This document shows positions 5,190 through 34,118 of a stretch of DNA of 39,249 nucleotides, piece by piece (position 1 is the stretch's first letter; each line of letters begins with the position of its first letter). The position numbers and the translations under genes are program-made. The notes beneath the pieces are model-generated. The model ran no database searches. It saw nothing but the letters and a program-made list of their open reading frames with translations, and was not told where the DNA came from. The DNA comes from Chiloscyllium plagiosum (Eukaryota): assembly GCF_004010195.1 (NCBI RefSeq), contig NC_057726.1:69177418-69216666 (forward strand), given 5' to 3'.

Positions 5190-5309
5190 GCAACGGCAAC
5201 AATAACTTTCCTTACGTCTTGGTGTCTGGGTGTGCAGTGGGCGGTTTAATAATTTTGTTTCCCGTTGTTGCAATTCTTGTCAAGCGACGGACATCAGGCA
5301 AACCTGAAG
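5190..5309 (+). CDS. Receptor gene A: transmembrane exon (uncharged TM)
   Basis: ttttacatattctag|GC...GAAG|gtaagc, 120 bp, phase 1-1; GNGNNNFPYVLVSGCAVGGLIILFPVVAILV-KRR, a hydrophobic helix with basic stop-transfer residues. Confidence 0.85.
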
Positions 5310-5822
5310 GTAAGCCCTGGCATTACCCTGTTTAGTTGTTTTGTTTGGTCTACTCATTGTTGGATGTTGTCGCACGGACCGTGTAAAGTTCAGACACAGA
5401 TCTAGATATTCAGATCAATGCAGACATCAGGAAAAAAAAAGATTGGCTTCCTGGGCCTCAGAGCTTGAATGCAGGCAATGCCTGAAAAGGAACTTTGCAG
5501 AATAATACGTCCACATCTCCATGTTAAAGTCAACCATAGCTTTGTTCTTTACAATACCTCAAGATGATAATGTGAACGATCTAGATTAATACCCTTAATG
5601 CTGTAACAGGGAAAAGGATCACCGCTGGGTAAGAAAGTGTGAAATGTGTATGACAAAATAATATATCGCACCTTTGACCAAAGCTAATCCGCAATTAGAC
5701 ACTGGTGTTATTTCTTATTGATGTCGAATCTGGTCACTTTAAACCAATATACTTTGGGAGGCTCTTCACACATCAAGTTCATGATAACTTTTATTGTTGA
5801 TATCAGTTTCATTCTCCAATAG

Positions 5823-5866
5823 GAACACAGATTACTGAAGACATACCAGAGCAGCTGGAGCCGCAG
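5823..5866 (+). CDS. Receptor gene A: 44-bp cytoplasmic exon
   Basis: ttctccaatag|GAACAC...CCGCAG|gttagt, phase 1-0, GTQITEDIPEQLEPQ; same length, start (GAACAC) and end (CAG) as 22030-22073. Confidence 0.75.
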
Positions 5867-5904
5867 GTTAGTTTCATTCTCATCCAATCAGACACTGAAA
5901 TATG

Positions 5905-6835
5905 CTCTGGATGTAGGTTTGCTCGCTGAGCAGGAAGGTCCATTTCCAGATTTTTTTTCACCCTAATAGGTAACATCTTCAGTAGGCCTTCAGGTGAAGC
6001 TCTGCTGCTGATTCCGGCTTTCTATTTATGTGTTTGGGTTTCTTTCGGTTGTAGATGTCATTTCCTGTGGTGATGTCATTTCCTGTTCTTTTTCTCAGGG
6101 TATGGTAGATGGGGTCGAACTCAATATGTTTGTTGATAGAGTTCTGGTTGGAATGCCATGCTTCTAGGAATTTTCGTGCATGTTTCTGTTTGGCTTGTCC
6201 TCGGATGGATGTGTTGTCCCAGGCAAAGTCATGTCATTCCTAATCTGTATGTAAGGATACTAATGAGAAAGGATCATGTTGTTTTGTGGCTAATTGATGT
6301 TCATGTATCCTAGTGGTTAGTTTTCTGCCTGTTTGTCCAATGTAGTGTTTGTTGCAGTCCTTGCACAGTATTTTGTAAATGGCATTATTTTTTCTTGTTG
6401 TCTGTATAGGGTCTTACAAGTTCATTAGTTGCTGTTTTAATGTGTTGGTGGAGTTGTGGACCACCATGATGCCAAGGGGTCATTACCAACACAGTAAAAA
6501 AGCAGCTAGGACAAGCCAAACAGAGACATGCATGAGAATTCCGAGAAGCATGGCATTCCAATTGGAACTCTATCAACAAACACATTGAGTTAGACTCCAT
6601 CTATCACCCCCTAAGAAAAAGAACAGGAAATTACAGCACCACAGGAAATAACATCACCAACCCAATGAATCCTAAACATATAAATAGAAAGCAGGAATCA
6701 GCAGCAGTGCTTTGCCTGGAGGCCCACTGAAGATGTTACCTGGTAGGGTGATGAAGCATCTAGAAATGAACCTTCGAGCTCAGTGAGCAAACCTACATCC
6801 AGAACCTCATCCTAAACTACAAATCTTCTCAAAAC
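5905..6835 (-). mobile_element. Penelope-like retroelement 3' fragment with inverted terminal duplication
   Basis: Minus strand ~6400-6150 encodes NAIYKILCKDCNKHYIGQTGRKL...RIHEH...FLEAWHS (GIY-YIG endonuclease, with stops); ~6508-6825 is an inverted copy of ~5905-6205. Confidence 0.85.
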
Positions 6836-6960
6836 ATGCTATTGAAATATGCTGTACATTGGCACCAAAATTATAGTAATTCTATTAATATAACAGAACT
6901 GCTTTAGCTTATGCCAGAACAACCTGTGAGTATCACTGAGTAAGTGCTTCTTTTACTTTC

Positions 6961-7085
6961 TGGTGGCTCCGTATTAGCACTGCTGCCTCAAAGTTGTACA
7001 GACCCAGACTGATTCAAGGCTCGGGTGACTGTGTGAAGTTTGCAAGTTTTACCCATGTCTGCACGGGCTTCCTCCGGGTGCTCAG
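6961..7085 (+). mobile_element. SINE (HE1-like) 5' fragment
   Basis: tggtggctccgtattagcactgctgcctca...gggcttcctccgggtgctc, homologous to the 1331 and 2028 copies. Confidence 0.6.
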
Positions 7086-7544
7086 ACTATCACCAAGTTA
7101 GCATTTCTTTTACTTCATTATCTTCCTCCACATTGCTGGCAGAACTCGCTTTCAAGTAATCCATCAATTCTCACAGACATTGATTTCTGTACTGGTGTTT
7201 TATCTAAGCCACCCTGACAACTATTCAAATACGTGAAGTAGCCTATTCCAGTTCAAGAAGAAGGACCGCTAGTGATTATGATTCAGAAATTATGATTTGA
7301 ACGTTTCTGAACTTTCAATTAGTGCCATAACATCCATTACTTAATTTTTCAATACTTTACTCTGAGCAAGGAGTGGCAATAAATGTTGGCGCGTTTGCAG
7401 AAAATGGATCCGCTGATCTGCTTATATAACAGTTCTCACATATATAATACCAATTATTGTACCTACCTTGCAGTTACGAACTGCACTGTTCTACTTATCT
7501 ACCGTTGTATGGACTGTAACCATGATATGGCAGTGCTGGTGTTG

Positions 7545-7705
7545 TACAGGGGTGGACAAGGTAAACCAAAATGTTTATTTGAAATCACAAGCTTTTGGAG
7601 TGCTGCTCCTTCGTCAGGTGAAGTAAAGAGAAACATGCAGGCACAGAATGTACAGGCTATATTTATGGACTACAACCTGGTGTCCTGTGACTTCTGACCA
7701 TGTCA
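7545..7705 (-). mobile_element. Remnant of a Penelope-type terminal repeat
   Basis: agcttttggagtgctgctccttcgtcaggtg and ggactacaacctggtgtc motifs; the latter recurs at ~26319-26340 (ggactataacctggtgttg). Confidence 0.45.
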
Positions 7706-8022
7706 GGATTGGGTGCATTGGACCTTGTGCATGATGTTTTTGACTTGTGATAAGCAAATAATAAATGCCCCAAAATTTCTCATCAGATTAGGTATGGGAG
7801 AGAAGTGAACAGCCCTTCCTATGCTGCTCTCAATTTCAGTGAGCACGGGAAATCTGCAAAACCCAGGCATCTGGGAGAGCCAACTATCTATGCCCAGGTA
7901 TGAGTATGCCAAAAAAGGAGTGATCAGGTATAAGTAGCTAATCTCAGCAATGTACATTGACAAAAGTAGAAAAATACATTTGAATAAAGGATGCAACTGA
8001 TCTTTTATTGTTGTTCCCTCAG

Positions 8023-8172
8023 ACTCAACAAAGTGCTGGCATTAAACTGATATATACATCTGTGGAATTCACCAATCCGCAGAAAAGTGAAAAAACCAAC
8101 AAACAGAAAATGGAAATGGAATATGCAAAGATCAAGATAAACAAGCCAAATGGAGAATCCCAGCTCGTATGA
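8023..8172 (+). CDS. Receptor gene A: terminal cytoplasmic exon with ITIM (LIYTSV) and ITIM/ITSM-like motif (MEYAKI)
   Basis: ttgttgttccctcag|ACT, phase 0 matching the previous exon; TQQSAGIKLIYTSVEFTNPQKSEKTNKQKMEMEYAKIKINKPNGESQLV*. Confidence 0.8.
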   Translation, partial: TQQSAGIKLIYTSVEFTNPQKSEKTNKQKMEMEYAKIKINKPNGESQLV

Positions 8173-8500
8173 AGAATTGTAAAGTCCAATAATGGGCCAG
8201 CCACATAGGGTCCACCATGCAGTGTCTGATTATGGAAACTACCTGTACAGTACATTATTGGTTATTTAGTAGCACATTGACACATAAAGGAATGGAAGGA
8301 ATCTGCAGAAGATTTACTGAGAGAAAGACATTGGGAATTGGCACAGCAGCTGACCTTGAAACCTACAGCTTGTTTAAAAGAACCAAAGCAGTACAGTATT
8401 CATCAAAGTTTTAAAGTGGGACACATGAAATGTGAAACACATTTGTCATTTCGGGTAGGAGTAGAAGATGATTAGTTGGATGAGTTATGCAACATTATAA

Positions 8501-8506
8501 AATAAA
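8501..8506 (+). terminator. Candidate polyadenylation signal of gene A
   Basis: First AATAAA seen downstream of the stop codon (~330 nt after it). Confidence 0.35.
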
Positions 8507-9199
8507 CCATTTTTTATACAATCAGAGGAGCACTTGACAATTTGGTCATCTTCCCTCATCTCTAACAGCATTTAGGTTCTATAAGAAAATGCTCTTACCA
8601 TTCTTTGAATAATGATATCAACAAGTCCTTATATTCCTTTCTATTTCATTGACTTATCTAGCTCCTTCTGCCATGCACAAATCATCATCTCAAAGACATT
8701 GTGTGGGAGCAAACTGAACCTACAAAGTTTATTTCCTGGGTAAGCAGAAGAAAATCATGACAAGGAGAATGGTAGATACTTGAAACCCTTGAACCTTCTA
8801 CAGCATGTATTCGGAATATTGCGACCTTCACTGAAATTTCTTGTTTGGTCCACAATATCCCACACTTTGTAGCCCTTGACAGTCTTGTCTATCAAATATC
8901 TGCCTAATGTATTCAATGAATAAATTCTCAATGTATTATATGGCCCATCTACAACTGGCTGCTTGGGAGGAGAATGTTACAGTCCAATCACCTACTGGGA
9001 AATTAACATTTTCCCAATGTACATCATTGTGATTCCATGGAGCATAGGAAGGTATGGGATGTTTTCATATGGATTTATGAAATCATGAGCAGCACAACTA
9101 AGGTGAATAGCCAAGGTCCTTTGCGCAGTGTAGGAAAATCCAAAACTGGAGGGCATAGGTTTAAGGTGTGAGGAGAAATAATTAAAATGGATCCAACTT

Positions 9200-10330
9200 T
9201 ATTAACTAATCTACCATGTAGAACCCTGGTGAAATCCTTGCTAAAAGGTGATGTTTACCACTTTGCCTGCATCTATTGAACATATTCTTGAACATATTTT
9301 CAAACAAATTTGTGAGAAACAGTTTCCCACGCACAAAACAATGCTGACTATCCCTGAAAAGTCTTTGCCGTTCCAAATGCATGTAAATCCTGCCTCTGAG
9401 AATCCCTCCAGCAACTGACCCACCACTGACATTCGGCTCACAGATCTATAGTTCTCTGGCTTTTCTTTGTAGATTTTCCTAAATAATGGCACAACATTAG
9501 TCACCCTTCAGTCTGCCAACATCTCACCTGCAGCTGTTGAAGATACTCGTACCTCTGGTGGGTGTCCCCCAATTGCTTTCCTCGCTTCCGACAATGTCCT
9601 GGCAATTTATCCACCTTTGTGCATTTCAAAACCTTCAGCACCTCCTCTGCTGTAATATGGATGCTTTTCAAGACATCTCTATTTATTTCTCTGAGTTCGC
9701 CAGTTTCCATGTCTTTATCCAGAGCAAATACTGACAGAAAGAATCGACTTAGGATCTCACCCATCTCTAGTGCTTCCACACATAGATGGCCTTGTTGACC
9801 TTTAAGGGGTTCTATTCTCTCCATAATTACTCTTTGCCCTTCAGAGACAGGGAGAATTTTTATCGCATGTGCTTTTTCTGCCCTCCCTTTGAAGTGTACT
9901 GCTACTCCTTCTATGCTCCTCAAGAATTTATTTAATCTCAAATGTTTAAATTTGACATGTACCTCCTTTTCATTGATCAGAGCTTCAGCACTTCATATTT
10001 CCTAGTCCTACTAGCCTTACCATTCACACTTACAGGAACATGCTCAGCCTGAACTCCTGCTATCTCGCTTTTGAATAATTCCCACTAACCAGGCATTCTT
10101 TGACCTGCGCACAGCCTCCACCAATCAACTTTCAAAAATCCCTATCTCATGCAATCAAAATTGGCCTTGTCCCACGTTGGAACTTTAGCTTGTGGACCAG
10201 ACCTATCCTTTTCTGTAACTATTTTAAAACTAAGTAGTATTATGGTGATTGGTTCCAAAATGGTCTCGCACTAACATCTTAGTCACTTGCCGTCCCTTAA
10301 TTCTCAGCAGGAGGTTGAGTTTTGTCCTTC
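9200..10330 (-). mobile_element. CR1 LINE ORF2 internal fragment (degenerate)
   Basis: Minus ORFs contain EMGEILS.FF.SVF, VDKLPG and NVVPLFRK..KEKPENYRSVS (CR1 pre-RT/RT motifs). Confidence 0.85.
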
Positions 10331-10334: not shown

Positions 10335-10980
10335 AAAAGCAGGACAAAAAAGGAGAGTTAATGATTCGAGCGTAAGTTTTTCATCGCAAATGTGGGTCAG
10401 GGCCCAAGTTGGCTAAGAGATAGAGCAGCGGGGAATGTGGCTTGGAATGTGATAGGGAGATGAAGGCGGGGATGATGGTGATGGGTCAAAGTGGAGGGTG
10501 GAACACATAGGTGGGAAGGAAGATAAACAGGTATGACAATTACAGAGGGTGGTGCTGAGTTGGATGGTGGTATCTAGAATAAGGTGGGGGGAAGGGAGAT
10601 GAACAAACTGGTGGAACAGACATTGATTCTGCCTGGTTGGAGGGTCCCAAGATGAAACATGAGGTGTTCTTCCTCCAGTTGTCTGGTAACTTGGATTTGG
10701 CGGTGGAGGAGGTGCAGGGCTTGGGTATCATTGGTGGAGTCGGAGGGGGAGGGAGAGTTGAAATGGTCACCCACAGGGCAGTGGAGTTGTTTGATGTGCG
10801 TGTTCCGGAGATGTTCTCTCAAATGTTCCGCAAGTTGTCGTCCTGTCTCCCTAATGTACAGGAGACCACATTGAGAGCAATGGACACAGTAGATGATGTG
10901 TTTGGAGGTGCAGGAAAATCTCTGCTGGATGTGGAAGGATCCTTTGGGACCTTGGGTGACAGTGAGGGGGACATTTGTAG
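10335..10980 (-). mobile_element. Penelope-like element 3' fragment (GIY-YIG endonuclease, second family)
   Basis: ORF 10574-10984: FSCTSKHIIYCVHCSQCGLLYIRETGRQLAEHLREH...VGDHFN...LGTLQPGRIN. Confidence 0.85.
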
Positions 10981-12695
10981 GCAAAGGAATGGCTGAAATT
11001 GGGAAGAGATGGGGGAGATACTAAATGAGTATTTTGCATCAGTATTTCCTGTGGAGAAGGATATGGAAGCTAGAGATTGGGGAAATAAAGAACGATAGCT
11101 TGAAAAATGTCTGCATTCCAGAAGAGGAAGTGCTAAACATCATAAAACACATAAAGATGGATATATCCCCAGGACCTGATCAGGTGTATCCGAGGATTTT
11201 GTAGGAAGCTAGTGAAGTGATTGTTAGGCCCCTTGCTGAGATATTTGTACCATCGATAGTCACAGCTGACGTTTCTGAAGACTGGAGGTTGGCTAATGTG
11301 GTGCCACTATTTAAGAAAGTTGATAAGGAAAAGTCAGGGAACTATAGACATGGCAGCCTGATGTCAGTGGTAAGCAAGTTGTTGGAGGGGATCATGAGAG
11401 TCAGCATTTATATGTATTTGGAAAGGCAAGGATTGATTAGGGAGAGTCAACCTGGCTTTGTACTTGGGAAATCATGTCTCACTAATTTGATTGAGGTTTT
11501 TGAGGAGTAATGAAGAAGATTGACGAGGCAGAGCAGTGGACATGATCAATATGCATTTGACAAAGTTCTTCATGCTGAACTGGTTAGCAAGGTTAGGTCA
11601 CATGGAACACAAGGAGAACTAGCCATTTGGATACAGAACAGGCTCAAAGATACGAGACAGAGGGTGGCGGTGGATGGTTGCTTTTTAGATTGGAGTCCTG
11701 TGACCAACAGTGTGTTACAAAGAAAGGTGTTGAGTTCACTGCTTTTCATCATTTATAATAATGATTTAGATGTGAATATAGGAGGAATACTTTGTATGTT
11801 TGCACATGACACCAAAATTGGAGGTGTACTGGACTGTGAAGAAGGTTACCTCAGAGTACAATGGGACCTTGATCAGATGGACCAATGAGCTGAGGCATGG
11901 CTGATGGAGTTTAATGTTAATATATATGAAGTGCTGCATTTTGGGAATCAGGGCAGGATTTATACACTTAATGGTAAAATCCTAGTAAGGTTGCTCACCA
12001 ACTAGTCCTTGGAATGCAGGTTCATAATTCCTTGAAATTGGAGTTACAGGGTAGATAGGATAGTGACGAAGGTGTTTTATATGCTTGCCTTTAATGATCA
12101 TTGCATTGAGTACAGGAATTTATAGGTAATGTTATGGCTGTACAGGTCATTTGTTCGGCCAGTTTTAGAATACTGTGTTCAATTCTGGTCTTCCAGCAAT
12201 ATGAAGGATGATGTGAAACTTGAAAGGTTTCACAAAAGGATGTTGACAGGGTTGGAGTGTTTGAGATATAGGGAGTGGGTGAATAGGCTGAGGCTGTTTT
12301 CCCAGGAGTATCCGAGACTGAGGGGTGACCATTTTGAGGTTTATAAAATCATGGATAGATTGAATAGTCAAGGTCTTCAATCCATGGTAGGGGAGTCCAA
12401 AATTAGAGGGCATAGGTTTACAGCGATAGGGGAAAGATTTGAAAGGGACCTCAGGGACAACATTTTCAAGCAGAGGATGGTCCGTGTATGTCATGTGCTG
12501 CCAGAGGAAGTGATGGAGGCTAGTTCAATTACAGCATTTAAAATACAACTGGTTGGGGATTTGAACAGGAAGAGTTTAGAGGATATGGCCAAATGCCACC
12601 AAATGGGACTAGATTGATTTAGGAAATGTGGTCAGCATAGATGGATTGAACCAAAGGGTCTGTTTCCATGCTGTACAGCTCTATGCCTCTATGAC
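10980..12695 (+). mobile_element. CR1 LINE, 5'-truncated, RT to 3' end
   Basis: DWRLANVVPLFKK, SCLTNL, AFDKVLH, FAHDTK (degenerate FADD), LEYCVQFWS, RLRGD; ends in a ctctatg/ctatgact tail. Confidence 0.9.
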
Positions 12696-13189
12696 TTTGT
12701 ACCTGTTTGTAGCATCTATCACCATGAGGTACCTTATTACAAAGTTAAATTTGAAGCCATTGACCTTGATTCTCAATCTAAGTTGTTTTTGGAGTTTCTT
12801 CTCCATTGTGTGCTTGTCGTTTTAATTGCAGGGGCTTATGTTAATGATATTTCCAAATGGTGGCATCGTTAAAAGACTTTTCGAGTCTCCATGTATTGAT
12901 CAATAAGTACCTTCATCAAGCTACTCACATAACTTATTAAAGAGTTCAGGTAATTTAATAATATCCAAGGTGTTATTAATAATCAGTGTTCAATTTCATT
13001 TCTCAGCATGTATATTCATCCTTCCGAAATATCCTGTGTTAAAGTGTTTAACAATTTTCATTCTGAAATGGCTGACTGGTATGTAGTTACTTGACTGAAA
13101 TTTCTCCAAAAATTACATAATAAATCTACCTGAATATCATTTGATAGCAATCCGATAGATGGAGAAGATGACCGCAATTGAAACCCAGG

Positions 13190-14423: not shown

Positions 14424-14735
14424 CCTCTCACAATTCTCAGTTGATGGTGAGACAAGATCGAGAGTGCGCTGTCACCAGAGGCGCCTTGGTTAAACTTTAT
14501 TGCATTTTCCCCATCTTTCAAGACAAGAAGCCAGTGAAAGTGCAGTGGTGCAGAGATGGGAGAGATGGGTTCTTGGAGGAAATTTTGGACCACAAGATCC
14601 AGCTTTTTTCCCTCAATTGGGGAGGAGCTGTCTTACAACTGGCGGATATAAGATTGGAGGACGCTGGGGTTTATTACTGCAGAGTGACACACAATGTGGC
14701 TGCAAACGGAACCGGCACCAACCTGGTCGTGTTCG
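14424..14735 (+). CDS. Receptor gene B: single-exon VJ-type Ig V domain (germline-joined J motif)
   Basis: tttttgtgcaacag|CC...TTCG|gtaagg, phase 1-1; VKLYC...VQW...LQL..IRLEDAGVYYC...NGTGTNLVV (J-like GxGTxLxV). Confidence 0.92.
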
Positions 14736-15969: not shown

Positions 15970-16272
15970 TCCCTCCTACTCCACTCAAACTGGTCAAACT
16001 GCTGGAGGACGGCTCAGCTTTCCCTCTAACTCTTCTTTGCACAACTGCTGAGTTTTACCCAGACAACCTGAATATCACTTGGTACAAAAATGATTCAGAA
16101 ATTGCAACCGGGATGGAACATGTCAAACTGCAGAATTCCATCGGCCTCTATGAGGTTTCCAGCAACCTGACTGAGACAGAACCCGTTCAGAGCGGTACCG
16201 TTTACACTTGTCAAGTGTCTCACATCTCACTGCAGACGCCAATGTCAGCTACATTTTCAATAAATAGGGTAG
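15970..16272 (+). CDS. Receptor gene B: Ig C1-set domain exon
   Basis: ttttgtttag|TC; VPPTPLKL...LTLLCTTAEFYPDNLNITWYKND...LYEVSS...VYTCQVSHISLQTP; roughly 40-45% identical to gene A C1 by hand alignment; 3' end is either 16272 (in phase) or 16268. Confidence 0.9.

Positions 16273-17725: not shown

Positions 17726-17727
<2 letters not shown>

Positions 17728-17800
<73 letters not shown>
17728..17800. repeat. Poly-G run (73 nt)
   Basis: Uninterrupted G homopolymer; possibly a sequencing or assembly artefact. Confidence 0.9.
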
Positions 17801-21209: not shown

Positions 21210-21311
21210 ATCATGTCGGGAACAATAACATCTCTTCTCTAACGTTTTTCCGTTGTTTGGGAGTTGGATTGATTTTCCACCTCATCGTTACATGCAAACT
21301 CATACGAATCG
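21210..21311 (+). CDS. Receptor gene B: transmembrane exon containing Arg
   Basis: tcttcacag|AT...ATCG|gtaaga, 102 bp, phase 1-1; DHVGNNNISSLTFFRCLGVGLIFHLIVTCKLIRIG; shares GNNN and CxxxGL with the gene A TM exon. Confidence 0.75.
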
Positions 21312-21751: not shown

Positions 21752-22004
21752 CTGCGAGTTGTGTCCAGATTTTAACCAATCTATATCATGGGATTTGTTC
21801 TTGACGCCGATGCTTTTGGAGCAAGTGCCTGTGATATTATTTGTAACATTTTCATGCGTAGTTGCAACAGAATTAAAGTACATCTGCGAGTTTTAACCAA
21901 TCTATATCATGGGATTTGTTCTTGACGCCGATGCTTTTGGAGCAAGTGCCTGTGATATTATTTGTAACATTTTCATACGTAGTTGCAACAGAATTAATGT
22001 ACAT
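21752..22004. repeat. Tandem duplication (114-bp core, period 121)
   Basis: 21770-21883 vs 21891-22004 differ at 2 positions; ctgcgagtt occurs at 21752 and 21884. Confidence 0.95.
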
Positions 22005-22029: not shown

Positions 22030-22073
22030 GAACACGCAGAAAACTGAAAGAGTGTAATCAGCGCAATGAGCAG
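22030..22073 (+). CDS. Receptor gene B: 44-bp cytoplasmic exon
   Basis: ttctcatttag|GAACAC...GAGCAG|gtaggc, phase 1-0, GTRRKLKECNQRNEQ; paralogue of 5823-5866. Confidence 0.72.
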
Positions 22074-22884
22074 GTAGGCCACTGGCAGCAACTATTTAAG
22101 CTGTTTGGGCTGGCATTTCCAAAAAGCGATCTCTTTACCATTGTGTCAATTCCCTGCATGTTTGCAAGTCTAAAAGGGTATGTTACAATTAGATAAAATG
22201 TGACGGTATAATAATGTCTTTCAATGCAGAAGGCAGGTTGCAAAGGACCGGTTGGGTCAAAAGTTAAAAACATCAGCAACATTATTTTGAATATAGTTAA
22301 TAGTTTGAGAGGACCACAATAATTCCTTGAGACTAAAGGACTAAGGGACTTAACGAGACAGTAAGGTGAAAAATTACCAAGGTGATTGATATAGTATGTA
22401 ATCAAAGGTATGATCTGTTGCACAGAATGACATGTTTCAGTGATGGGAATTTAAGCAAAATATATTGATGAATGAGGGAGTATAATTAGGAGACGGCCGG
22501 CAAGCATTGAGAAAGAAAACCTTCATCTCGACGGTGAAAGGATCAAGAGAATCTATAGTCATGGACGAGGCAAAAAAATACAGCAAACCATTCTATTCCT
22601 CAAGTAATATAGAATTAAATGATTAAATTGAAACTAAAAAAGTAAATCATCAATAACAGTCAGTTATTGATGATGAAAAAGTCAGTTGGCCGAATTAGAA
22701 ATGATGCGACAGAACCGGATCCTAATGCGAAAACTTGAAGATTAAGGCGATCTGTAAAGAGTTGAACATTCAGGAAATTAATACTGCATCTTAAGAATGA
22801 ATGGAGTCAAATCTTGTAATCCCGTCTACAATTGCAAGTAAGAAAATAATAGTTCAACCTGTTCTATTTACAGAACAAAAACGA

Positions 22885-23600
22885 CATGGGATTCATTTTG
22901 GAAGGTCGAATTTGAATGCAGAATACAGGGTTAAAGACAGGATTCTTGACAGTGTAGAGCAACAGAGGGACCTTTGGCTCCATGTTCATAGATCCGTCAT
23001 AGATAGGGTTGTTAATAAAGCATGTGAGGTATTGGCTTTCATTAGCAGGGGCATTGAGTTTAAGAGCCGCGAGGTTATGTTACAGCTCTATAGAACTCTG
23101 GTTAGAACACAGTTGGAATACTGCGTCCACTTATGGTCACCTCATTATAGGAAGGCTGTGGAAGCTTTAGAGAGAGTGCAGAGGAGATTTACAAGGCTGC
23201 TGCCTGGAATGGAGAGCATGTCTTATGAAGAAAGGTTGAGGGAGCTAAGGCTTTTCTCATGGGAGTGAAGAAGTGTGAGAGGTGACTTGATAGGGGTGTA
23301 CAAGATGATGAGAGGCATAGATAGAGTGAATAGTCAGAGATTTTTCTCGAAGGGCAGAACAAGGGGACATAATTTTAAGATGAATGGAGGAAGGTTTAGG
23401 GGAGATGTCAAAGGTCGGTTATTTACACAGTGGTAGTAGTCAGATACATAGAGGACATTTTAGCGACTCTTGGATAGGCACATCGATTACAGTAAATGAA
23501 GAGTACATAGTTAGTTTGATCTTTGAGAAGGATAAAAGATCGACACAACATCAAGGGCCGAAGAGCCTGTACTGTGCTGTACTGTTCTATGTTCTATTTT
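22885..23600 (+). mobile_element. CR1 LINE 3' fragment
   Basis: IHFGRSN...LYRTLVRTQLEYCVHLWSPHY...LERVQRRFTRLLPGM; (gttctat)n tail. Confidence 0.9.
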
Positions 23601-25572
23601 ACATTGTCAAAAATTGACACAGATACTGCAAAATGAATTGGCTTATTTTTCGCGCAAAAACAGACAAAATGCTGGCAAATCAACTGCGGAACAATGAATA
23701 GTTACATGAGCAGGAAACGTGATATTTCACAGCCATTTGTTCGCCTCAATTATTGTTACCCAACAAAGCAGAAGCTGCATTTCTGAGTGTCAGACTTCAA
23801 CCCAAATATTGCTGTTTACAGACGAAACACGGAATGACAGAGAATAACAAGGTTTACACAGACTTGGATATCACAGGCTCGGGAAAAACTGGGCGAATGG
23901 CCAAGAAGGAAGTCAATGCAAGTTAAGCTCAGGTGCGGCTGTTTTTTTAAAAATCGAAATAAGGAAAAATAACACGTAATAAAAGTTAATGCAATGTAAA
24001 CTGACATTTCATGTTTGAATATATTGAAGTGCATTAAAACTTGTATCCCAATAAATTAATTATTAGATGATATGATAGCATTTCAAATAGTCATTTTAAG
24101 AAAGAACTCACAAATAGACCTTTTTTTTTGACTGGAGGAATGTCTGTAGCAAGGCCCATTAAGGTCAATGCTTTTACATCCAATGTTTATCAAATAGAAT
24201 AGAGAGATGATAGAACATCGAGAAAGTACAGTTCACTTCAGAAAAGGGTTTATTCAAGCATTTTAGGTGGAAGAATAATGACCGAAGAACACAACTTCAC
24301 ACAAAACTTACAGGTACGCCTGCACTGCAGGTTACCAATTTCCCTGAAATATTGCTCCGGTCGTTACTGTAAAGAATACAGCCAAACGTGCACAGAGCTC
24401 CAGAGTACACCCAAGCTGTGTAAACACCGCAAGAATTCTTTAAACTTCAACAAAATCCATAATAGGAAGAAAGATTATGAACTAAACAGTTTGATTTCGA
24501 AGACTGAATTCAACCCATATCACGTCCAGAACATTAAGAGGTTGTTAATAATACGTTTATAGATCGGGAGAAACAGATATTAAGAAAAAGAAATCAGTTT
24601 CTGAAATCACCAATCATAACTAAATTGTAAAGACATCCGATATTGTACTGCTTGTTTAAAAAAAATCAAGGAATATTGGCGCCATTGGATAAACAACCAA
24701 TTCATCCTACTTCCCGTAGTTATTTCAGGCAACAGCCTTAATATGTTGAATAAATTAGAACGGGCATAAACTGGAACGGACATGTGCAGCCGATTTAAAA
24801 AAAAACCTCTTTGTGGTGTTTCGTTCTCCTCTTGTGTTCAGAATCTGAGCTTTTCCCCATTTGTTCAATTTGGCCCGCGCCCCATCCGTAAGGTGCAGGA
24901 GAAATGACACTTCCTGCGAAAGACGGGATCCCAGATTTCGGCTTCATATTGCGCCAAAGTTGCGTTCTGCATTGCTATTGTTTCTAATGGAAAATTCACT
25001 CTGCAGTGAAAAATGTGTATTGGAAATTCACTTATATGATCTTAAGAAGATTTTGTTTCTCCCAGCCAACAGTAGAAAACACAGAAATCGATACCCTTTA
25101 TATAAAAGTTAGGGTAAAAGGAGATTATGCTATGATGCTTTTGATGATGGAGATAGGACAGAATATACTTTAGTACACGAGTAACCTTCGATCGGATCGC
25201 AAAGATTTCAAATAAGCAGCAGGATGAAATGATTAAATTCTTGATTTTTCCGTCTCTTGATCTGCAATACATTGTTCACAAATTTCGAGAAAGCAGTTAT
25301 AATGGTAATCTTCTAAAGAGACTGTCAATTCCAGGGCAAAATTGCAGTGACTTGGAGAAGGGATAAGTCAGTTGGAGTAATTGGTTGTATTGTCAGAGCA
25401 CCAACATTCTTCATCATTCTTGACTGTGAAAAGATTTCATTGTTTTGGTAGCTTTATCAAAGAAAACATTAACGTCTGTGATACTCTGACCACTTTGAAT
25501 ATAAACCACTTAAACAGATTTTTGAATAGTCGTTTCAAATAGATCCTCATAATAAAAAGTTTTGTTTTTCAG

Positions 25573-25599
25573 ATCAAACCAGAGAAATCTGACAGTTAA
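25573..25599 (+). CDS. Candidate short terminal exon of gene B (IKPEKSDS*)
   Basis: Strong acceptor tttgtttttcag, phase 0; downstream accaatccgca also occurs in the gene A last exon; unverified. Confidence 0.22.
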   Translation: MKPEKSDS

Positions 25600-26393
25600 G
25601 GTGCATACACCAATCCGCATAGCCCTGGCATTTATACACCTTAAAGAACATATCGGATTGAATGCGCAATGAATGTTGATAATAGCCTGCGTTTTATGAA
25701 CAGTTTTAAGAAGACAGCAGGGCAAAATATCCCCTTCTTTATTCGGACAGCAATATACTTAATGTTATGATATATTTGTGTACTGTAAGCAACTTGATAT
25801 TCATTTCCTTCAGAATTTTCTCAGTAATTACACTGTAATGCCATGTTGATAAACAGAAATGTAAATCAAACGCATGTAAAGCAATATGAATGGATTATGA
25901 AGATCCTTGATCTTATTTACTGAATGACATACAATCAAATCATTACAGCAGAATTCATAATTATTCTGACACTTCATTCAAATTTATTTCCAACAGCATT
26001 ACATGGGTATTGATTCATGGGCTATAAATTGTACTACAAATTTTGACATTTTGATTATGACTTTGCAAGTTTGATTTAACTAATTCAAGTTTATCTATCA
26101 AGTTCACGTTTTCGTACGATACAAAACATTAAACAGGTGACTCAGCAGGCAAAGACTCGCTGGTGCACTTCTGTAGACTCAAAGCTTTACATATCCATTG
26201 ATACGTAGCACCCTGTTCATTGCAGGCAGAAAGAATATGTGCACATACAATGCACAAATGAACAAAGTATTGGAAGATATTGTTGGCCGATTTCTCAGAG
26301 ATTTCAAATAAACATGTTGGACTATAACCTGGTGTTGTGCGATTTTTCGATTTCAGTTTGTATCAATCTGCCTGGATTCGCAGTTTTTGAAGT

Positions 26394-28135
26394 CTAACTG
26401 TTCTGTGCCTGCAGTTCATACTGCTGAATCTGCCCTCGCATTCGAATCATTACTTCTGTGTGGGCTTCACATTTACACACAGTAATTGATTTGGGCAACA
26501 GGACCGTTTCCAGGAGATCAGAAACCAGGCCACGGCATGTGATGAGCTTTCCGGTAGAGGTTAAGAAGCCCCTGTGTTTCCACAGGGTTCCAAAATCATG
26601 TACAATCTCGAATGCATATCTGCTATCGTTGTAAATATTCACTGTCTTTCCCTTAGCCAATTTACAAGCCTCAGTCAAGGCAATCAGCTCCGCTGCTTGC
26701 GCTGACAGATGAGAAAGGAGTGATCCTGCTTTGACTGCCTCATGGATAGTCTCTACAGCATATTAAACACAGTTCTGGCCTGTCTCCTTGCTCCTGAATG
26801 CTGACCCATCCACAAAAAACTCCATATCCGGATTCTGAAGTGGCGAATCCTGCAAATCCAGTCTGGGGCTGCAAATTTCATTAGTTACAGCGACTCAATC
26901 ATGTGGGTCTCCGTCTCCTTCTGTGGGGAGAAGGCTAGCAGGGCTAAGGATGTTACATCGCTTTATTGCAATATTAGGCATCTCCTATAACACGGTATTG
27001 TATCTCAGCCAACGTGCTGCCGACACGTGTGCTGTCTTTTGCTCGGGAAGCAGTAAGGATACTGCAGAACCGATGATCCCGAGGTTAAAACAGGAGTGTC
27101 CAGACTCCTGCATAGAGACTCATTATGTATGGCGGGGGACTCACAGTAACCTTGACAAATTTGCGTGAAGGTATATGATTTCCCTTTGAATGAAAAAGCG
27201 TACCAGAATTGATTATCTGGTACACTAAAGAAGGCATTTGCTAAATCCACAACAGAGAGCCATTTACTGTCCGGTGGAATTTGAGCTAATATCGAATAGG
27301 GGTTGGGAACATTTGGGGCGCGCTATTGACTGCCTGCAGGTCTTGAACAAACCTCCATTCCTCAGGTTCACCTGGAATGTTTGCTTTTTTGAATGGAAAA
27401 ATGGGGGTTCTCACCAGTAGGTTCTCACAGGGGATTATCACTCAAGCCTTTAGAAGGGATTCAAAGACTGGAGTAATTCTTTCTATAGGATCAGTGGTGC
27501 TGGAAGAGCACAGCAATTCAGGCAGCATCCGAGGACAGGCAAAATCGATGTTTCGGGCAAAAGCCCTTCATCAGGAAGGGCTTTTGCCCGAAACGTCGAT
27601 TTGCCTGTCCTCGGATGCTGCCTGAATTGCTGTGCTCTTCCAGCACCACTGATTCAGAAGAAGGTTTCCAGCATCTGCAGTCAATGTTTTTACACCATTG
27701 TTTTTACCTCTAATTCTTTCTATAGCCTCAGGCTTTAACAGATATCGTGCTCTGCAAGGAGGCGGTAAATCTCTCTCGTACCACGACTGCATCCATTGAG
27801 TTCAGAAAGCTTCCACTCATCTTTATTGGCATCGACTCTCTGAACTGGCTTGATTTAAGGACTAACTATGTAGCTCCTGTATCGACCAAAAAGGTAACTG
27901 GTGTACCTTCCACATATAACATGGAGGTAGGCATCGAATTATATGCATCGTTGTTATATTGGACATATTGCCCACACTTCGCAACCTCAATGCTCAATAT
28001 AGAGGTGGGACATGTCTCAGTGTCCGTAAGGTTAGTAGAAGAGATTAGCATAAGCGAGCCTTCATTGCAAACCATAAAGAAAAGAGGCTTACCTGTACCT
28101 TGTGGGCTGCCCACCTTCACTTCAGCCCTCCCCTG
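26394..28135 (-). pseudogene. pol: ERV pro-pol remnant (protease, RT, RNase H) with stops, frameshifts and deletions
   Basis: FLVDTGAT*; YLLKPEA; DLANAFFSVP...QGYCESP...VLQY (DD absent); FFVDGS; ELIALTEAC; NIYNDSRYAF; KCEAH. Confidence 0.9.
27489..27710. mobile_element. Short palindromic Penelope-type element inserted in ERV pol, with 15-bp TSD
   Basis: TSD taattctttctatag at 27474-27488 and 27711-27725; ~80-bp inverted arms 27490-27569 / 27575-27653; removing it restores LKPEAIERITPVFESLL. Confidence 0.9.
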
Positions 28136-29671
28136 ACAGTCACCCTGCTGTCTAGCCTCCAGAGCCAATTTAGGCTGTCTGTGTGGGCACTGTTTCGCCC
28201 AGTGGTCCATTGCTCCACAAACAAAGCACCCACCAGATCTATCTCTGCCAGCGCCTCTTCCTCTGTCTTTTTTCCACAGCACCTCCCTCCAACGGCTGGG
28301 CGACCATCTGCATCAGAGTAAGCTGAGTTTTATCTGCTTGCTGTTCCATCTTTAGTTACCACTTATCCTTCTCTCGGGTAAGCAATATTTCAGCATGTAT
28401 CGCATGCTGTTCTATCAAATCCAGCTTTCCCGTGTCCCAGGTAATACATGTGTCTTTTACCTTTTTCGCTATTTCGTCTTTCATTCCGTTGATGAAGCTG
28501 TTCCTCAGGTGTGCTTCATATGCCATGATTTCTGCTGCCGTTTTGTCGAAGGGTGGTCTCAGTCCGCTTTGTTTATTATGGACTTCAGTGAGGCGCGTAA
28601 GGTACTGGGACACGGTCTCACCTTCCTGTTGTTTACACATTGCTATTTTTGTCATGTCCATTCGCACTGGGAATGCCTCCCTCCAAGCGGTTGCCAGCGC
28701 TGCAACAAAAGCATTAAAGTCTCTGGTCTGCTCCACTCATGGGTTGGCTACTCTGGCATGGACGTTTGCAGCTGGCCAGGTATAGTTGATTTTGGTGAAA
28801 ACGGCACCTAGTTTTCGTCCCAGGAGACGTCTCATCTTATGTGAAGTGGGACGGAACTCAGTACAGAACTTGGTCACTTATTTGGCGAACTTATGACCTC
28901 CAACCTCGCGTGGGTCAGGCAACTGCCCATAGGCACTTTCCAGATCTTTCATGGTTCATGGTCAGTGCACCAGCACTGGACACCCTTCTGGACCTGCAAC
29001 TTCAGCCATTGGGGCTTGCAGAATCAGCTGGTTAGATGATCGTGCGCCAGTACCCTCGCTGTCTGACTCATCAACCGTCGGGGGGTGATCACGAACCGGC
29101 CCTGGATGCCTTTCCATCTTGTAGTGGTCGTCCTTCTTTTGGGCTTCTTGCTTCAATTGCTTGTGGGTATGGTGTGCTATCGGTGATTCAGCAGACCCTG
29201 AGGCGGCGGCTGCTGACTTGGAACCTTCACCAGGCGGATCTTGTAGGGGGGCTGGCGGTCTCGGAGGGCAGTCATCAATGTCAGGATATGAAACAGACTT
29301 AAGATACTGTACAGCTTTGCGAGGTTGTATTCCGCACACATCTGCATGTGCGCTGGTATTTGTACGTGTACTTGATCTATCTTTTACTTGAGATTTCCTT
29401 TCCCTGATATTAGCCTCAGCCTTCCACAATGTATAAGCACTCCAATTCACAGGTTCTATTTTTCCCTTCTTTTTCTCCTTCTCTCTCTCCTCCAACCTCA
29501 ACCTCAATATTTACTAAAACTTCCTCCCTCTGGAAAACCACATTCCTTGATCGACAATTCTAACTGCTTTACAGGTTCTGGGCCGTAATCATTTAGCATG
29601 TATTGTATTTTTGGTTGGCTATTCCATGTCCTGTGTGGACTCTCCTTTTGTTTGCTCTTGCCGGAGCCCAT
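28136..29671 (-). pseudogene. gag: ERV gag remnant
   Basis: ATG at 29671 gives MGSGKSK (myristoylation-type); GFPEGGSFS; Pro-rich PPRPPAP; capsid; CFVCGAMDHWAKQC knuckle; several frameshifts and stops. Confidence 0.88.
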
Positions 29672-30060
29672 TTTTAGCATAACTGGAAAAGTGTTCAGCT
29701 CTCTTGCTCTCTCTGGCGGTACCATTATCTTTTCCCTTTGACTTGCTTTCTTTCCTCTGGCGGGCCGCCTCAATGCCTTGGTTTTCATAAGCCAAGACAC
29801 CACGTACCCGGTACATCGTTGGTGAGTCCCAACTCAGCCAGTGGTGGTTCCAAGTCTAAAACCACCCTTAAACTTGCTGTCTCCTAAACATTCTAGACAA
29901 GGCAATCCCCTTCCCTTGGGTTTTGCTCTAATCCCACAGCATTGAACCCTTTTCCTGCTGTACTTATTCTCTTAGAATGAGTCTCTATATAGGATTACTA
30001 AACCTTCGACTCTTAATCCAACCCTATTCGATTCGAACTCCAGCGCTAGGGTGATCTGCA

Positions 30061-30152
30061 TATTCTGAAAATGTGTTGCTGGAAAAGTGCAGCAGGTCAG
30101 GCAGCATCCAGGGAACAGGAGAATCGACGTTTCGGGCATAAGCCCTTCTTCA
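30061..30152 (-). mobile_element. One-armed relative of the 27489 element, inserted in the ERV leader
   Basis: gctggaaaagtgcagcaggtcaggcagcatcc...gacgtttcgggcataagcccttc; flanked by gatctgca at 30053-30060 and 30153-30160. Confidence 0.8.
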
Positions 30153-30276
30153 GATCTGCAGATTCCCAGTCCTCTCACTCAAAAGGGCCAATTCAGCACT
30201 CGAGATGAAGTGAAAGACCTTCAAGGTGCTGTCACCTGCGCCTCCTGGGAGTCTTCAGAATCCCACCAGTTGCGGG

Positions 30277-30294
30277 ATCCCAGACGAGCCTCCA
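30277..30294 (-). promoter_or_regulatory. Retroviral primer-binding site, tRNA-Pro
   Basis: Minus strand TGGAGGCTCGTCTGGGAT matches the Pro PBS TGGGGGCTCGTCCGGGAT at 16/18; 7 nt from a ...TGACA LTR end. Confidence 0.85.
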
Positions 30295-30301
30295 AGTTTA
30301 C

Positions 30302-30720
30302 TGTCACGGAAATTAAATCGACTTGACTCAACTGTTAGCAAGAGCAAAGAAAGGAGCTTGATTTAAATTCTGCAGAATTGACCCAGTACATTCAACTAGG
30401 TGTCTCCATGTAAGGGGTTCCTGAACATTGTTCAGATACTTGCCTTATACTGTTTCTTATCATGCTCTCAACGGCAACGACTGGGAAAACTCAAGTTATT
30501 ATTCTCTCATCCCCTGGTCTTGGACATAGCAGTTCTTCAGCTTTTGTTGAGTTCGACTATTGCAACGTCGAGTTGAATGTTTACAAAACTGATACAGAGA
30601 CAAGCTGGCTGCAAACCTCATCAAAGTATTGTTTATAAAGCTCAGCACAGCATTAAATTTTAGAAAAGCATTCTCTTTCAAATTTCACAGTAAATGGATA
30701 ATTTTCCATTACATAATCAT
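30302..30720 (-). repeat. Putative 5' LTR (distal boundary uncertain)
   Basis: Ends in ...CA next to the PBS; TATAA on the minus strand near 30446-30450; no second copy available to fix the length. Confidence 0.55.
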
Positions 30721-30874
30721 CAGTTAATAATTAATAGTCCATCACTATTTCTTCATTACTTTGTTGGCTGAGGATTCCATTATCTATTCTAGAATTGCTA
30801 CCACTTTTATCGCTCTAGTGGTACTAACGTTGTCTGATGTTTGTTCTCCCTTCCTCCTCCCAGTTCAATAGCAT

Positions 30875-31220
30875 CCTACCTCAAACAAGGTGGCCAAAAC
30901 TGAACACAATACTCCAAGTGCAGCCTCACCCACGTCCTGTACAACTACAATGTAACTTCCCAAATTCTATACTCAATGCCCTGACTGATAAAGGCCAGTG
31001 TGCTAAAAGCCCTTTTCATTGCCTGTTTACCTTTGACTTCAATTTCAGAGAACCATGCACATGAACTCCAAGGTCCCTCTGTTCCCTTACACTCTTTAAG
31101 GACCTACCATTCACCATGAAATTCATCCTTTGATTTTACTTTCCAAAATGCAAGACCTCACATTTATTTATATTAAACTCCATTTGGCATTTCTCGGCCC
31201 ACTTCCCCAACAGATCAAAA
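30875..31220 (-). mobile_element. CR1 fragment
   Basis: ggccaaaactgaacacaatactccaagtgc is the reverse of HLEYCVQFW; ttccaaaatgcaagacctcacatttat is the reverse of KCEVLHFG. Confidence 0.8.
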
Positions 31221-31237
31221 TTCTATCTCTTTCTCTG

Positions 31238-31391
31238 CAGAGGAACCTCGATTATCCAAAGACATGGATGGGGATTATACTGTTCGGTTAGTTGAATTCC
31301 GGACAATCGAATGCTGGATAGCATAGTTTTGCGATCTTGTCAGGTATTCGATATTCAGATAATTGAATGCCAGATAACTGAGGTCCCTCTG
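31238..31391. mobile_element. Tc1/pogo (Tigger)-type MITE
   Basis: TIRs cagaggaacctcgattatc ... gataactgaggtccctctg followed by TA; related copy at 36173. Confidence 0.7.
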
Positions 31392-31392
31392 T

Positions 31393-31874
31393 ACCTCTCC
31401 ATTTCTGCCTCTCTATGTGAATCTTTTTCTGTATTCTCTGTCTTTCAATTTCTATTTCAAATTCACTCTGTCTCTCTCTCTCTGCCTCTATCTGTCTCTC
31501 TCTCTCTCTGTCATATTCATTATTTGTCATATTCTTTCCCAGTTTCTTTGTCATGCTTGCTCAGCTGTGCTGTCTGGGCCCCGCTGTATCTATCTCTTTT
31601 TGCCTGTCTCTGTTTTTGTCTTTCTCTAACTGTCTATGCCCCTCTCTCTTTCTCTTTCTCTGTATTCCATTCTCCCTGTAACTCTGTCTTTTTTTTTGTT
31701 GTCTCTTGTGCTCTCTTTAACTCTCTGTCTTTCACTCTTCACACTCTGGCTTTCACTTTGTTGATCATTACTTCGTGATCTCGAACTCTCCATCGCTCTC
31801 TATTCTGCCGGTCACTCTTGTGCTCTGTCTCTGTGCCTTTCTCCATCTGTCTCTATCTTATTATCTCCCTCTTA
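31393..31874. repeat. CT-rich low-complexity tract
   Basis: Degenerate (TC)n/(TCTG)n running into the gap. Confidence 0.85.
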
Positions 31875-32374
31875 NNNNNNNNNNNNNNNNNNNNNNNNNN
31901 NNNNNNNNNNNNNNNNNNNNNNNNNNNNNNNNNNNNNNNNNNNNNNNNNNNNNNNNNNNNNNNNNNNNNNNNNNNNNNNNNNNNNNNNNNNNNNNNNNNN
32001 NNNNNNNNNNNNNNNNNNNNNNNNNNNNNNNNNNNNNNNNNNNNNNNNNNNNNNNNNNNNNNNNNNNNNNNNNNNNNNNNNNNNNNNNNNNNNNNNNNNN
32101 NNNNNNNNNNNNNNNNNNNNNNNNNNNNNNNNNNNNNNNNNNNNNNNNNNNNNNNNNNNNNNNNNNNNNNNNNNNNNNNNNNNNNNNNNNNNNNNNNNNN
32201 NNNNNNNNNNNNNNNNNNNNNNNNNNNNNNNNNNNNNNNNNNNNNNNNNNNNNNNNNNNNNNNNNNNNNNNNNNNNNNNNNNNNNNNNNNNNNNNNNNNN
32301 NNNNNNNNNNNNNNNNNNNNNNNNNNNNNNNNNNNNNNNNNNNNNNNNNNNNNNNNNNNNNNNNNNNNNNNNNN
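31875..32374. other. Assembly gap (500 N)
   Basis: Run of N; the round size suggests a placeholder length. Confidence 0.99.
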
Positions 32375-33735
32375 GTCATATTTGACCTGGTTTTGGGAAA
32401 TGAGCCTGGCCATATGGGTGAAGCTGTAGTGAGGGAGCGTTTTGACCATAGTGACCATAATATCATGAGCTTTAAGATACTCGTGGAGAGGGATAACAGC
32501 AGTCCTTGTGTAAATGTGTTAAGTTGGGTGAAGAATTGGAGAATTTTGATTGAAGGCAGCTGTTTGAGAGTAAATCTATATCAGACATGAGGAGCATTTC
32601 AAATTGCAGTTGATAAGAGTTCATGAGCGGCACATTTCTGTGACGATAATTGATAGGTCTGGCAGGTTGTGCCAACCTTGGATGAGCAGAGATATTATGA
32701 CCATTGTCAGAAAGAAAAAGGAAGCGTAGGAGGTCAAGGAGAATGGGAACTGACGAAGACCTTGAAGTATGGAAGGAAAGTGGGGAAGAATTTCAACAAG
32801 ACATTAGAGGAAAATGTGTGTCTAACTAGTAAGTTTGCAGATGATATAAAGATTAGTGGAGTTGTGTACAATGAGGAGTATTGTCTGAGGATACAACAGA
32901 ATGTAGATCAATTGGAGGCATGGGCAGAGAAGTGGCAGTGGTGGTTTATTTGGGACTAATGTGAGCTTGAATACAGGTGGAAATTATACAGTGAATGGCA
33001 AGGCCCATCAGAATATTGATACGCAGAGGTGTCTGGTGTGTAGGTCCACAGATCACTGAAGGTGAGAGCGCAGCTAGATAAGGTACTTAAGGTAGTAAAA
33101 AGGGCTTAAGGCATGCTTGACTTCATTGGAAGGGGCATTGAGGATAAGGATAAAGAAGCTATGCTGCAGCTTTATAAAACTACAGTCAGGCCACACTTGG
33201 AATATTGCATATAGTTCTGGTCACCACAATACAAGAAGGAAATGGATGCTTTGGAGAAGGTACAGAAAAGGTTCGCCAGGATGTTGCTTGGTAAGGGGGA
33301 TTTTAGCTATGAAGGAAGGTTGGATAGACTGGGTTTGTTTTCACTGGAAGTTCAGGGCGATCTAATCGAAGTTTATCAGATTGTGAACAGCACGGATAGA
33401 GTAGGAAATATGAGGCTTTTTCACAGGGTGGAGGAATCAAGTACTAGGGGAACAGGTTCAAGAAATGAGGGGGCAAATTTAAAAGCGATGTGTGAGGCAG
33501 TTTTTTTCACATAAGGGGTGGTGATGCCTGGAATGTGTTGCCAGAGGAGGTGGTGGAAGCAGATGGAATAGCAACATTCAAAAAGCACCTGGACAAATAC
33601 ATGAATAAGAAGGGAATATAGGGATACCGTTCCTGTAAGTGAAGGCAATTTTCGTATGGAAAGGAAAAATGTGGCACTACAGGCTGGCAGACACAAAGAG
33701 TCTGTTTCTGTGCTGTATTCTTCTTTGTTCTTCTG
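32375..33735 (+). mobile_element. CR1 LINE with internal deletions (endonuclease end, RT, 3' end)
   Basis: DLVLGNEPG...SDHN (APE end); SKFADDIK; LEKVQKRFARML. Confidence 0.88.
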
Positions 33736-34004
33736 TATCCCTGAGTCATCTGAGCCCCTCAGAGATCATCCTGCCCGCTACGACACAGCTGGTTTGGTCA
33801 GCGTGAACCACCAATCCCAGAGCAGACCTGACTTGATTGGTGATAAGATCTGACTTGGCCAGACGGAATTTTGCTGATTGAAAGGAAGGATGAAATTGCC
33901 CAACTATGTCTCTGAGAGATGTTAGCTTTAATGTGCATGCTACCTCTTACCTGACATTGGTTAATCATTGCTAACATTCCACTTATTCTCCCCTTTTTTG
34001 TTAG

Positions 34005-34118
34005 TGAACAGTGACAGTATTTTGCAAAAGGAATTCTTGACTAGATGTGCTGTAGCAGGATTATTACTTCTCATGTTGGTAACTTTTGTGATACATGACA
34101 AATTAGATCCAATTAAAG
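34005..34118 (+). CDS. Third paralogous transmembrane exon containing Arg (gene C, or alternative exon of gene B)
   Basis: Branch-like gctaac, pyrimidine tract, ttag|TG...AAAG|gtaaga, 114 bp, phase 1-1; VNSDSILQKEFLTRCAVAGLLLLMLVTFVIHDK aligns to gene A SGCAVGGLII. Confidence 0.7.

Follow-up and report, generated by a model that had tools for sequence, protein, structure and literature searches.

A probable shark cluster of V(J)-C1 receptor genes with a likely inhibitory gene, a broken gene of inhibitory lineage and a lone transmembrane exon of likely activating type

Paired receptors that carry an arginine in the transmembrane (TM) segment are a textbook theme of immunology, and in SIRP-beta a mid-membrane lysine links the receptor to DAP12. 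In other vertebrates the Arg of the TM forms a pair with an Asp of CD3-zeta or FcR-gamma (PMC6514059), NxxR TMs of Xenopus bind FcR-gamma (PMC2413239), and FcR-gamma-binding TMs combine the Arg with a negative charge at the C-end (PMC6557307). Activating KIR and Ly49 receptors arise from inhibitory genes by recurrent gain of a TM charge and by loss, through a stop codon, of the immunoreceptor tyrosine-based inhibitory motif (ITIM), are spread by recombination and are short-lived (PMC2213150). The present work concerns a stretch of 39,249 nt of Chiloscyllium plagiosum contig NC_057726.1 (the window, whose positions serve as coordinates throughout), in which three TM exons, A, B and C, differ by Gly or Arg ahead of a cysteine. 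The window probably belongs to a cluster of shark receptor genes of the immunoglobulin family with V(J)-C1 structure, gene A being likely inhibitory, gene B formerly an ITIM gene and now broken, and C an isolated TM exon of likely activating type. The exon structure, the reading frames, the lesions of B and the TM classes are shown, as is, in gene models, the association of Arg with short tails. No on/off pair is demonstrated here, one of the two Arg copies being broken and the other lacking a visible front half, and the local claim is a modest one because the window holds no proven activating gene.

Among described systems, SIRP-alpha and SIRP-beta (PDB 2wng, 4i2x) resemble the family in their VJ-type V and C1 domains, tandem paired genes and multi-tyrosine inhibitory tail. 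When the family profile is compared with solved structures, SIRP-alpha ranks highest of the cell-surface receptors (E 6e-31), after immunoglobulin-type chains and UrIg2, and many database models of the family are automatically named SHPS-1-like, others tapasin-related, NCR3LG1-like or Ig lambda-like. SIRP has a V and two C1 domains, however, whereas the family has a single C1 (gene B has one V and one C1 ahead of its TM), and the DAP12-binding mid-membrane Lys of SIRP-beta contrasts with the outer Arg of the family's activating forms. The NxxR-type FcR-gamma TMs (LILRA, PIR-A, NKp46, GPVI, OSCAR, Fc-alpha-R and Xenopus XFL TM1), described in PMC2413239 and PMC6557307 as having an outer Arg, an inner acidic residue and a short tail, are resembled by exon C and by an old Arg class of the family in the outer Arg and the inner-end acidic residue. 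Their ectodomains are C2-type domains of the leukocyte receptor complex, unlike the V-C1 ectodomains of the family, and the Asn is missing in B (TFFR), C (FLTR) and 6/7 old-class Arg members. The family is like activating KIR and Ly49 in TM charge gain and ITIM loss, here known from gene models alone, but activating KIR use Lys and DAP12 with other ectodomains where the family has Arg and V-C1. NKp30 and shark NCR3 have a non-rearranging single-exon VJ domain and an Arg TM associated with CD3-zeta/FcR-gamma (PMC6514059); NKp30 has one V and no C1, in contrast to the C1 exons of A and B, and it is not among the best 60 structure matches of the family profile. UrIg and UrIg2, which like PRARP belong to the non-rearranging VJ-C1 genes, share with the family a single-exon VJ domain and C1, UrIg2 being a top structure match, but UrIg is secreted and has three C1 domains according to PMC12227049, whereas the family has one C1 and a TM. 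By analogy, the family would work like the SIRP, LILR or KIR pairs while fitting neither the SIRP nor the NKp30 architecture.

The three TM exons (A, 5190-5309; B, 21210-21311; C, 34005-34118) lie between AG/GT borders in phase 1-1, within vertebrate DNA that is rich in repeats and has a GC content of ~40%. Their signatures read SG-CAVGGL, FR-CLGVGL and TR-CAVAGL, and the codon preceding the Cys is GGG (5228, Gly) in A, CGT (21251, Arg) in B and AGA (34043, Arg) in C. The first-pass annotation had reported this Gly versus Arg difference, and exon borders, codons and in-register homology agree with it; the Cys that it called conserved is only moderately so, being present in 31/52 Gly-backbone TMs and 0/8 TMs of the old Arg class. 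The CxxxGL pattern by itself is uninformative, with 14 matches in six frames of the window. Requiring a hydrophobic continuation leaves 2 matches, where 100 shuffled sequences gave 0.04 on average and never more than 1. By hand calculation the continuation of B averages 1.99 and lies just below the cut of 2.0 because of the polar residues in its TM. Homology is a better proof of the three exons than the pattern, since all of them align in register with family TMs. A search with the C1 exon of gene B returned proteins from sharks, rays or elephant shark in 14/14 cases, and Pfam places a V-set domain at 14426-14734 and C1-set domains at 3468-3749 and 15972-16268. The three TM exons are members of a V(J)-C1-TM family of receptors from cartilaginous fishes. 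A protein atlas search returned only generic V-C1 clusters, and searches of the TMs against solved structures gave no matches or chance-level matches only.

Gene A, which carries the neutral TM, consists of the following exons.

3475-3750, plus strand: C1-set immunoglobulin exon (Pfam C1-set E 3.5e-10; matched in tblastn by 76/76 family queries)
5190-5309, plus strand: TM exon with Gly (GGG 5228-5230) before Cys and an uncharged core
5823-5866, plus strand: first tail exon (AG/GT borders; match to family model P0089)
7787-7897, plus strand: second tail exon (PSYAAL, TIYAQ; homologue match, open frame)
8023-8172, plus strand: last exon, with the ITIM LIYTSV and the ITIM-like MEYAKI, then a stop

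The five exons join in one open frame. The earlier assignment of the neutral TM to the gene with the ITIM tail was therefore correct, the A TM splicing in frame to the LIYTSV/MEYAKI tail. With an uncharged TM and an intact canonical ITIM, gene A likely encodes an inhibitory receptor, a function read from its motifs, and its tail tyrosines would recruit SHP-type phosphatases. It falls in a 99/95 clade with the family models P0014, P0016, P0146, P0089 and P0012. No V exon was found by homologue search in the first 3.4 kb or elsewhere in the window, and scans for a leader exon gave nothing convincing. A candidate exon at 6897-6925 was rejected, as homologues place the true exon start at 7787. The TM exon of A is 6 nt longer than that of C, with a mid-helix Phe-Pro (5258-5263) that is missing in relatives.

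Gene B has an Arg TM, and its recognizable exons are as follows.

14424-14735, plus strand: single-exon V domain with the J-like end GTGTNLVV (Pfam V-set E 1.7e-9; ungapped match to P0003; open frame)
15970-16268, plus strand: C1 exon, frameshifted by 4 nt near 16237 and with an ancestral-frame TAG at 16265-16267 just ahead of the donor
21210-21311, plus strand: TM exon with Arg (CGT 21251), His (21278) and Lys (21296), where relatives are uncharged
22030-22073, plus strand: first tail exon, equal in length to that of A (44 nt)
23822-23932, plus strand: remnant ITIM-type tail exon with KVYTDL and an in-frame TAA at 23924-23926 (tblastn E 4e-6 to P0003)

As assembled, gene B is not a working Arg receptor. 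Its TM is cut off because the 4-nt frameshift and the old-frame TAG end the C1 domain ahead of the normal donor, leaving the charged TM out of frame with the ectodomain. In a three-frame comparison with seven relatives, frame 0 reads LQTP at the end of C1 and frame 2 runs ANVSYIFNK to a stop; none of the seven has a stop at 16265-16267, their frame continuing instead. The donor after 16268, which matches 7/9 consensus letters, enters the TM exon out of frame and meets a stop 10 codons into it. The first-pass annotation had overlooked this mismatch between C1 and TM frames.

A reading in which A, B and C are all working receptors, with B expressed through a GT after 16272 and both Arg TMs bound to FcR-gamma/CD3-zeta, is decidedly unlikely. 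The V exon of B is open, and splicing at the alternative donor would give an open frame from V through C1 and TM to a 49-aa tail. B would then show a KIR-like charge gain together with lost tyrosine motifs (PMC2213150), one exon being untraced, a Lys standing at -2 and a stop replacing the Tyr. This donor matches only 5/9 consensus letters and lacks the +5 G, however, and it competes with the 7/9 donor 4 nt upstream; the shifted frame loses the conserved NVS end of C1, and a contig without the 4-nt loss still appears to have the TAG. The TM core of B holds both a His and a Lys, scans for a leader exon found nothing convincing, and the C1 domains of A and B are only 45% alike. Because this second GT lies 4 nt downstream of the usual donor, it exactly offsets the 4-nt loss, and a minor in-frame splice is formally possible.

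Contigs from other runs with the same species label have 4 extra letters at 16237-16239, and one X2 contig fits the shortened form of the window, by three letters only; the 4-nt loss of B may thus be variable or an assembly error. Under the rule of the read tool, a single one of the 16 listed contig pieces (X4 record 11, which may be an allele or a sister copy) bridges both the 4-nt site and the TAG. The five positions at which it is substituted are 16212, 16254, 16321, 16402 and 16406, and a combination of two tables indicates that it appears to keep the TAG. The stop therefore seems common to another sample's contig. Contigs on the C1 exon of B (15970-16240) are several-fold deeper than on the nearby intron and differ at many sites, depth not being copy number, suggesting several B-like copies in the species. 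In the intron between C1 and TM, a run of ~73 G at 17727-17800, possibly a sequencing artefact, coincides with a point at which reads seem cut. On expression, the ~2% of run X6 and ~6% of run X7 that were covered point neither way: the X6 matches are partial and nearly all in repeat bins, and X7 gave no reads on the end of the B C1 exon. The listed pieces of run X1 cross exon borders unspliced.

It is highly improbable that B now acts as a secreted V-C1 decoy, in which the stop or frameshift at the end of C1 drops the membrane anchor and the untranslated TM and tail exons decay. The V exon and most of C1 are open, the C1 being 86% identical to its closest named relative, a Chiloscyllium punctatum model; the TAG appears common to another sample's contig, and the damage is concentrated downstream of C1. 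Yet no leader exon was found in the scans, nonsense-mediated decay is the expected fate of a transcript whose stop codon precedes several introns, and a decoy leaves C unexplained.

The lineage of B favours a broken receptor gene that formerly had an ITIM-type tail. B sits in a 98/96 clade whose TM-bearing members, from horn shark to rays, are 7/7 Gly; because of this and of the remnant tail exon, B is best placed as an ITIM-lineage gene with a recent Arg. In the remnant exon a Lys stands at -2, where relatives carry Ile or Met before VY/TY, and the TAA replaces the conserved Tyr of the family's VYAQ; a homologue of the first-ITIM exon was not found for B. The earlier statement that no intact ITIM exon accompanies the Arg TMs holds as worded, but B is a former ITIM gene with a tail exon and not a tail-less one. 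The C1 domains of A and B fall in separate well-supported clades, and because they are only 45% identical the two genes belong to different old lineages and are no matched pair. The TM of B has two polar core residues, His at +8 and Lys at +14, a state seen in 0/60 homologues (one such residue occurs in 6/60). B looks like either an attempt to convert an inhibitory-type gene or plain decay, and now looks dead as a membrane protein; its Arg and the loss of its tail may have been selected while the gene was still whole, as in KIR (PMC2213150), or may have followed its breakage. Two small exons after B, at 25066-25107/25113 and 25573-25600 (TLYIKI/TLYIKV, similar to the immunoreceptor tyrosine-based switch motif), have AG/GT borders and no homologue match, and were set aside as unsupported. 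An intron of B also holds a direct duplication of ~120 nt at 21769-21990, where contigs from other runs skip 121 bases.

Exon C presents a different picture, and two features define its surroundings.

34005-34118, plus strand: TM exon C, an A-lineage exon with Arg (AGA 34043), a clean hydrophobic core and an inner-end His-Asp (Asp 34097-34099)
31875-32374: assembly gap (500 N) at a distance of 1.6 kb upstream of C, where ectodomain exons of C may be hidden

The exon is open, with both splice sites (donor 8/9) and no polar core residue; read-through of the donor would end in KGKT and a stop. Its best TM matches are the A-lineage models P0014 and P0089, the alignment to P0014 being ungapped at 38%. 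The cluster of basic residues that follows the helix has been lost and the His-Asp gained. An acidic residue at +15 to +18 is found in 8/60 homologues, which make up the whole of the old Arg class, and in C; B lacks an inner-end acidic residue. The first-pass annotation had allowed that the Arg might lie outside the membrane span. In C the Arg occupies position 3 of the best 19-residue hydrophobic window (Kyte-Doolittle), the placement that it has in the old Arg class, and so falls within a clean hydrophobic stretch, at the outer end; the Arg of B is excluded from the best 19-residue window and included in the best 21-residue window, which has low hydrophobicity (1.75). C is the credible activating TM of the window, and likely belongs to an activating receptor with a predicted acidic adaptor. 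No V, C1 or leader exon for C was found in the window, with its 500-N gap upstream; the introns between C1 and TM measure 1.4 kb in A and 4.9 kb in B, so the ectodomain of C could sit in the gap. Searches for tail exons after C gave background scores only, in a scan whose control found A's exon at z 8.2 and which ends with the window 5.1 kb downstream. The DNA around C shows no likeness to that around A or B apart from repeats.

The correlation of Arg with short tails, which the first-pass annotation had proposed to check across paralogues, is present in the family. The set comprised 86 proteins, of which 57 had a TM by the hydrophobicity cut and 29 without a clear TM were dropped; three Arg rows below the cut, and no non-Arg rows, were restored by hand, for a total of 60. 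A long ITIM tail occurs in 1/16 activating-type rows against 30/44 others (Fisher p 2e-5), and in 1/8 against 30/44 when the Arg-on-Gly-backbone rows are taken by themselves (p 0.005), both p-values being optimistic because the rows are related. The ratio of Arg to Gly is 8:31 at -1 against 2:88 at +2 to +4 (p 0.001); Arg recurs at -1, and Asp or Glu never does.

The activating-type rows form two classes. Class I, the old class, has eight rows (7 Arg, 1 Gln) from elephant shark, Heptranchias, Heterodontus, Scyliorhinus, Carcharodon and Chiloscyllium; its TMs have no Cys, end in Asp/Glu-His and never precede a long ITIM tail. On the C1 tree its label requires 8 changes, 7 of them forced by well-supported branches, and is scattered beside neutral-TM genes, as expected if one TM module was joined to many ectodomains, P0016 and P0146 being an example; the tree was built from 64 rows and 104 columns, and labels can also be scattered by gene conversion. 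This oldest activating class differs by a whole Cys-less TM module, not by one position. Its one Gln row, P0066 (Heptranchias perlo), keeps the distal Asp-His with Gln replacing Arg, and offers a natural control for adaptor binding. Class II has eight rows with Arg on a Gly-rich backbone, of which seven have short tails; its label, with B included, likewise requires 8 changes, 7 forced by well-supported branches. The combination of an Arg-Cys TM and a short tail is common to two stingray genera (P0100 and P0164 from Hypanus, P0165 from Hemitrygon). The eighth row, P0104 (Mustelus asterias), joins an Arg TM to an ITIM-type tail and could be a dual-function receptor or an intermediate. Similar ectodomains with opposite TM and tail types, the hallmark of paired receptors, are found within the family: the Chiloscyllium plagiosum models P0016 and P0146 form a matched pair, 80% identical over 206 aligned residues with differing TM types, and P0040 and P0043 are 92% identical in C1. 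The proposal of an inhibitory/activating pair thus stands for the family (1/16 against 30/44; P0016/P0146) and is not supported for the window, where B is out of frame, A and B are 45% identical and the gene of C is not visible.

Both Arg codons could instead reflect neutral decay or a harmless change at the membrane interface, with B a pseudogene and C a stranded relic beside the insertion of a long terminal repeat (LTR) element; this is unlikely. A single base turns Gly into Arg (GGN to CGN/AGR), the damage to B is clear, searches for ectodomain, leader and tail exons of C found none, P0104 has both Arg and an ITIM-type tail, and many models are truncated. C, by contrast, is open between its two splice sites with an uninterrupted hydrophobic core, and its Asp is otherwise found only in the old Arg class; the recurrence at -1 of Arg, never of Asp or Glu, and the Arg-Cys TM with short tail that Hypanus shares with Hemitrygon also speak against decay.

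Under the preferred reading, in which the family contains inhibitory and activating members, the Arg near the outer end of the helix in class I and in C would have as its partner the Asp of a CD3-zeta/FcR-gamma-type dimer, and the dimer's immunoreceptor tyrosine-based activation motifs would signal. Activators may have arisen by two routes. In the first, the old Arg…Asp/Glu-His TM module would have been joined to differing ectodomains; in the second, Arg would have been gained at the Gly before the Cys in an inhibitory-type exon and the tail lost, as in KIR and Ly49. The relatives across sharks and rays suggest that this swap repeatedly turned likely inhibitory into likely activating receptors, and C, with its Arg and distal Asp, appears to be a product of the second route that converges on the first. 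It is a tentative proposal, short of probable, that this paired V(J)-C1 family re-invented activators at least seven times by Gly-to-Arg change at the Arg position of the old module, that the module is as old as the chimaera-shark split, and that C is a converged exon and B a spent conversion.

Several observations weigh against these proposals. To the limits already given for the counts (the hand-restored Arg rows, the relatedness of the rows, the small tree) is added their origin in automatic gene models that are often cut short; 14/44 non-Arg rows are also short, 13 of those with tails <60 aa. An Arg near the outer surface of the membrane may be merely tolerated, and P0104 combines it with an inhibitory-type tail. 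The Asp of C sits one position later than in the old class, against which C scores 13 where class members score 40-55, and the NxxR Asn is present in 1/7 old-class Arg rows. In gene B, the weaker GT after 16272 restores the frame through the TM. Finally, a 2014 survey reports no Fc-epsilon-RI-gamma in sharks (PMC4016189), so that CD3-zeta or an overlooked gene would remain as adaptor.

The family pattern gives a testable one-residue handle on which adaptor sharks use, a question raised by the absence of an FcR-gamma chain from that survey (PMC4016189). If the proposal is true, activators that come and go in the manner of KIR and Ly49 around a CD3-zeta/FcR-gamma-type adaptor predate bony fish, and recurrent inhibitory-to-activating switching, so far a matter of mammals, also occurs in the oldest jawed vertebrates, where the receptors have the build of unrearranged antigen receptors. 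A literature search found no paper on this V(J)-C1 family, most subscription papers and the shark NCR3 paper (Kinlein 2021) being outside its reach.

Between B and C, at 26400-29500, lies a minus-strand remnant of an LTR-type retroelement or endogenous retrovirus with broken frames, in which two Pfam domains are recognized.

26397-26762, minus strand: RNase H
27869-28312, minus strand: zinc knuckle

Decayed copies resembling long interspersed nuclear elements, judged from the sequence and from very deep read pile-ups, are located at 10900-12700, 22860-23600, 32400-33700, 34450-35280 and 37200-38200.

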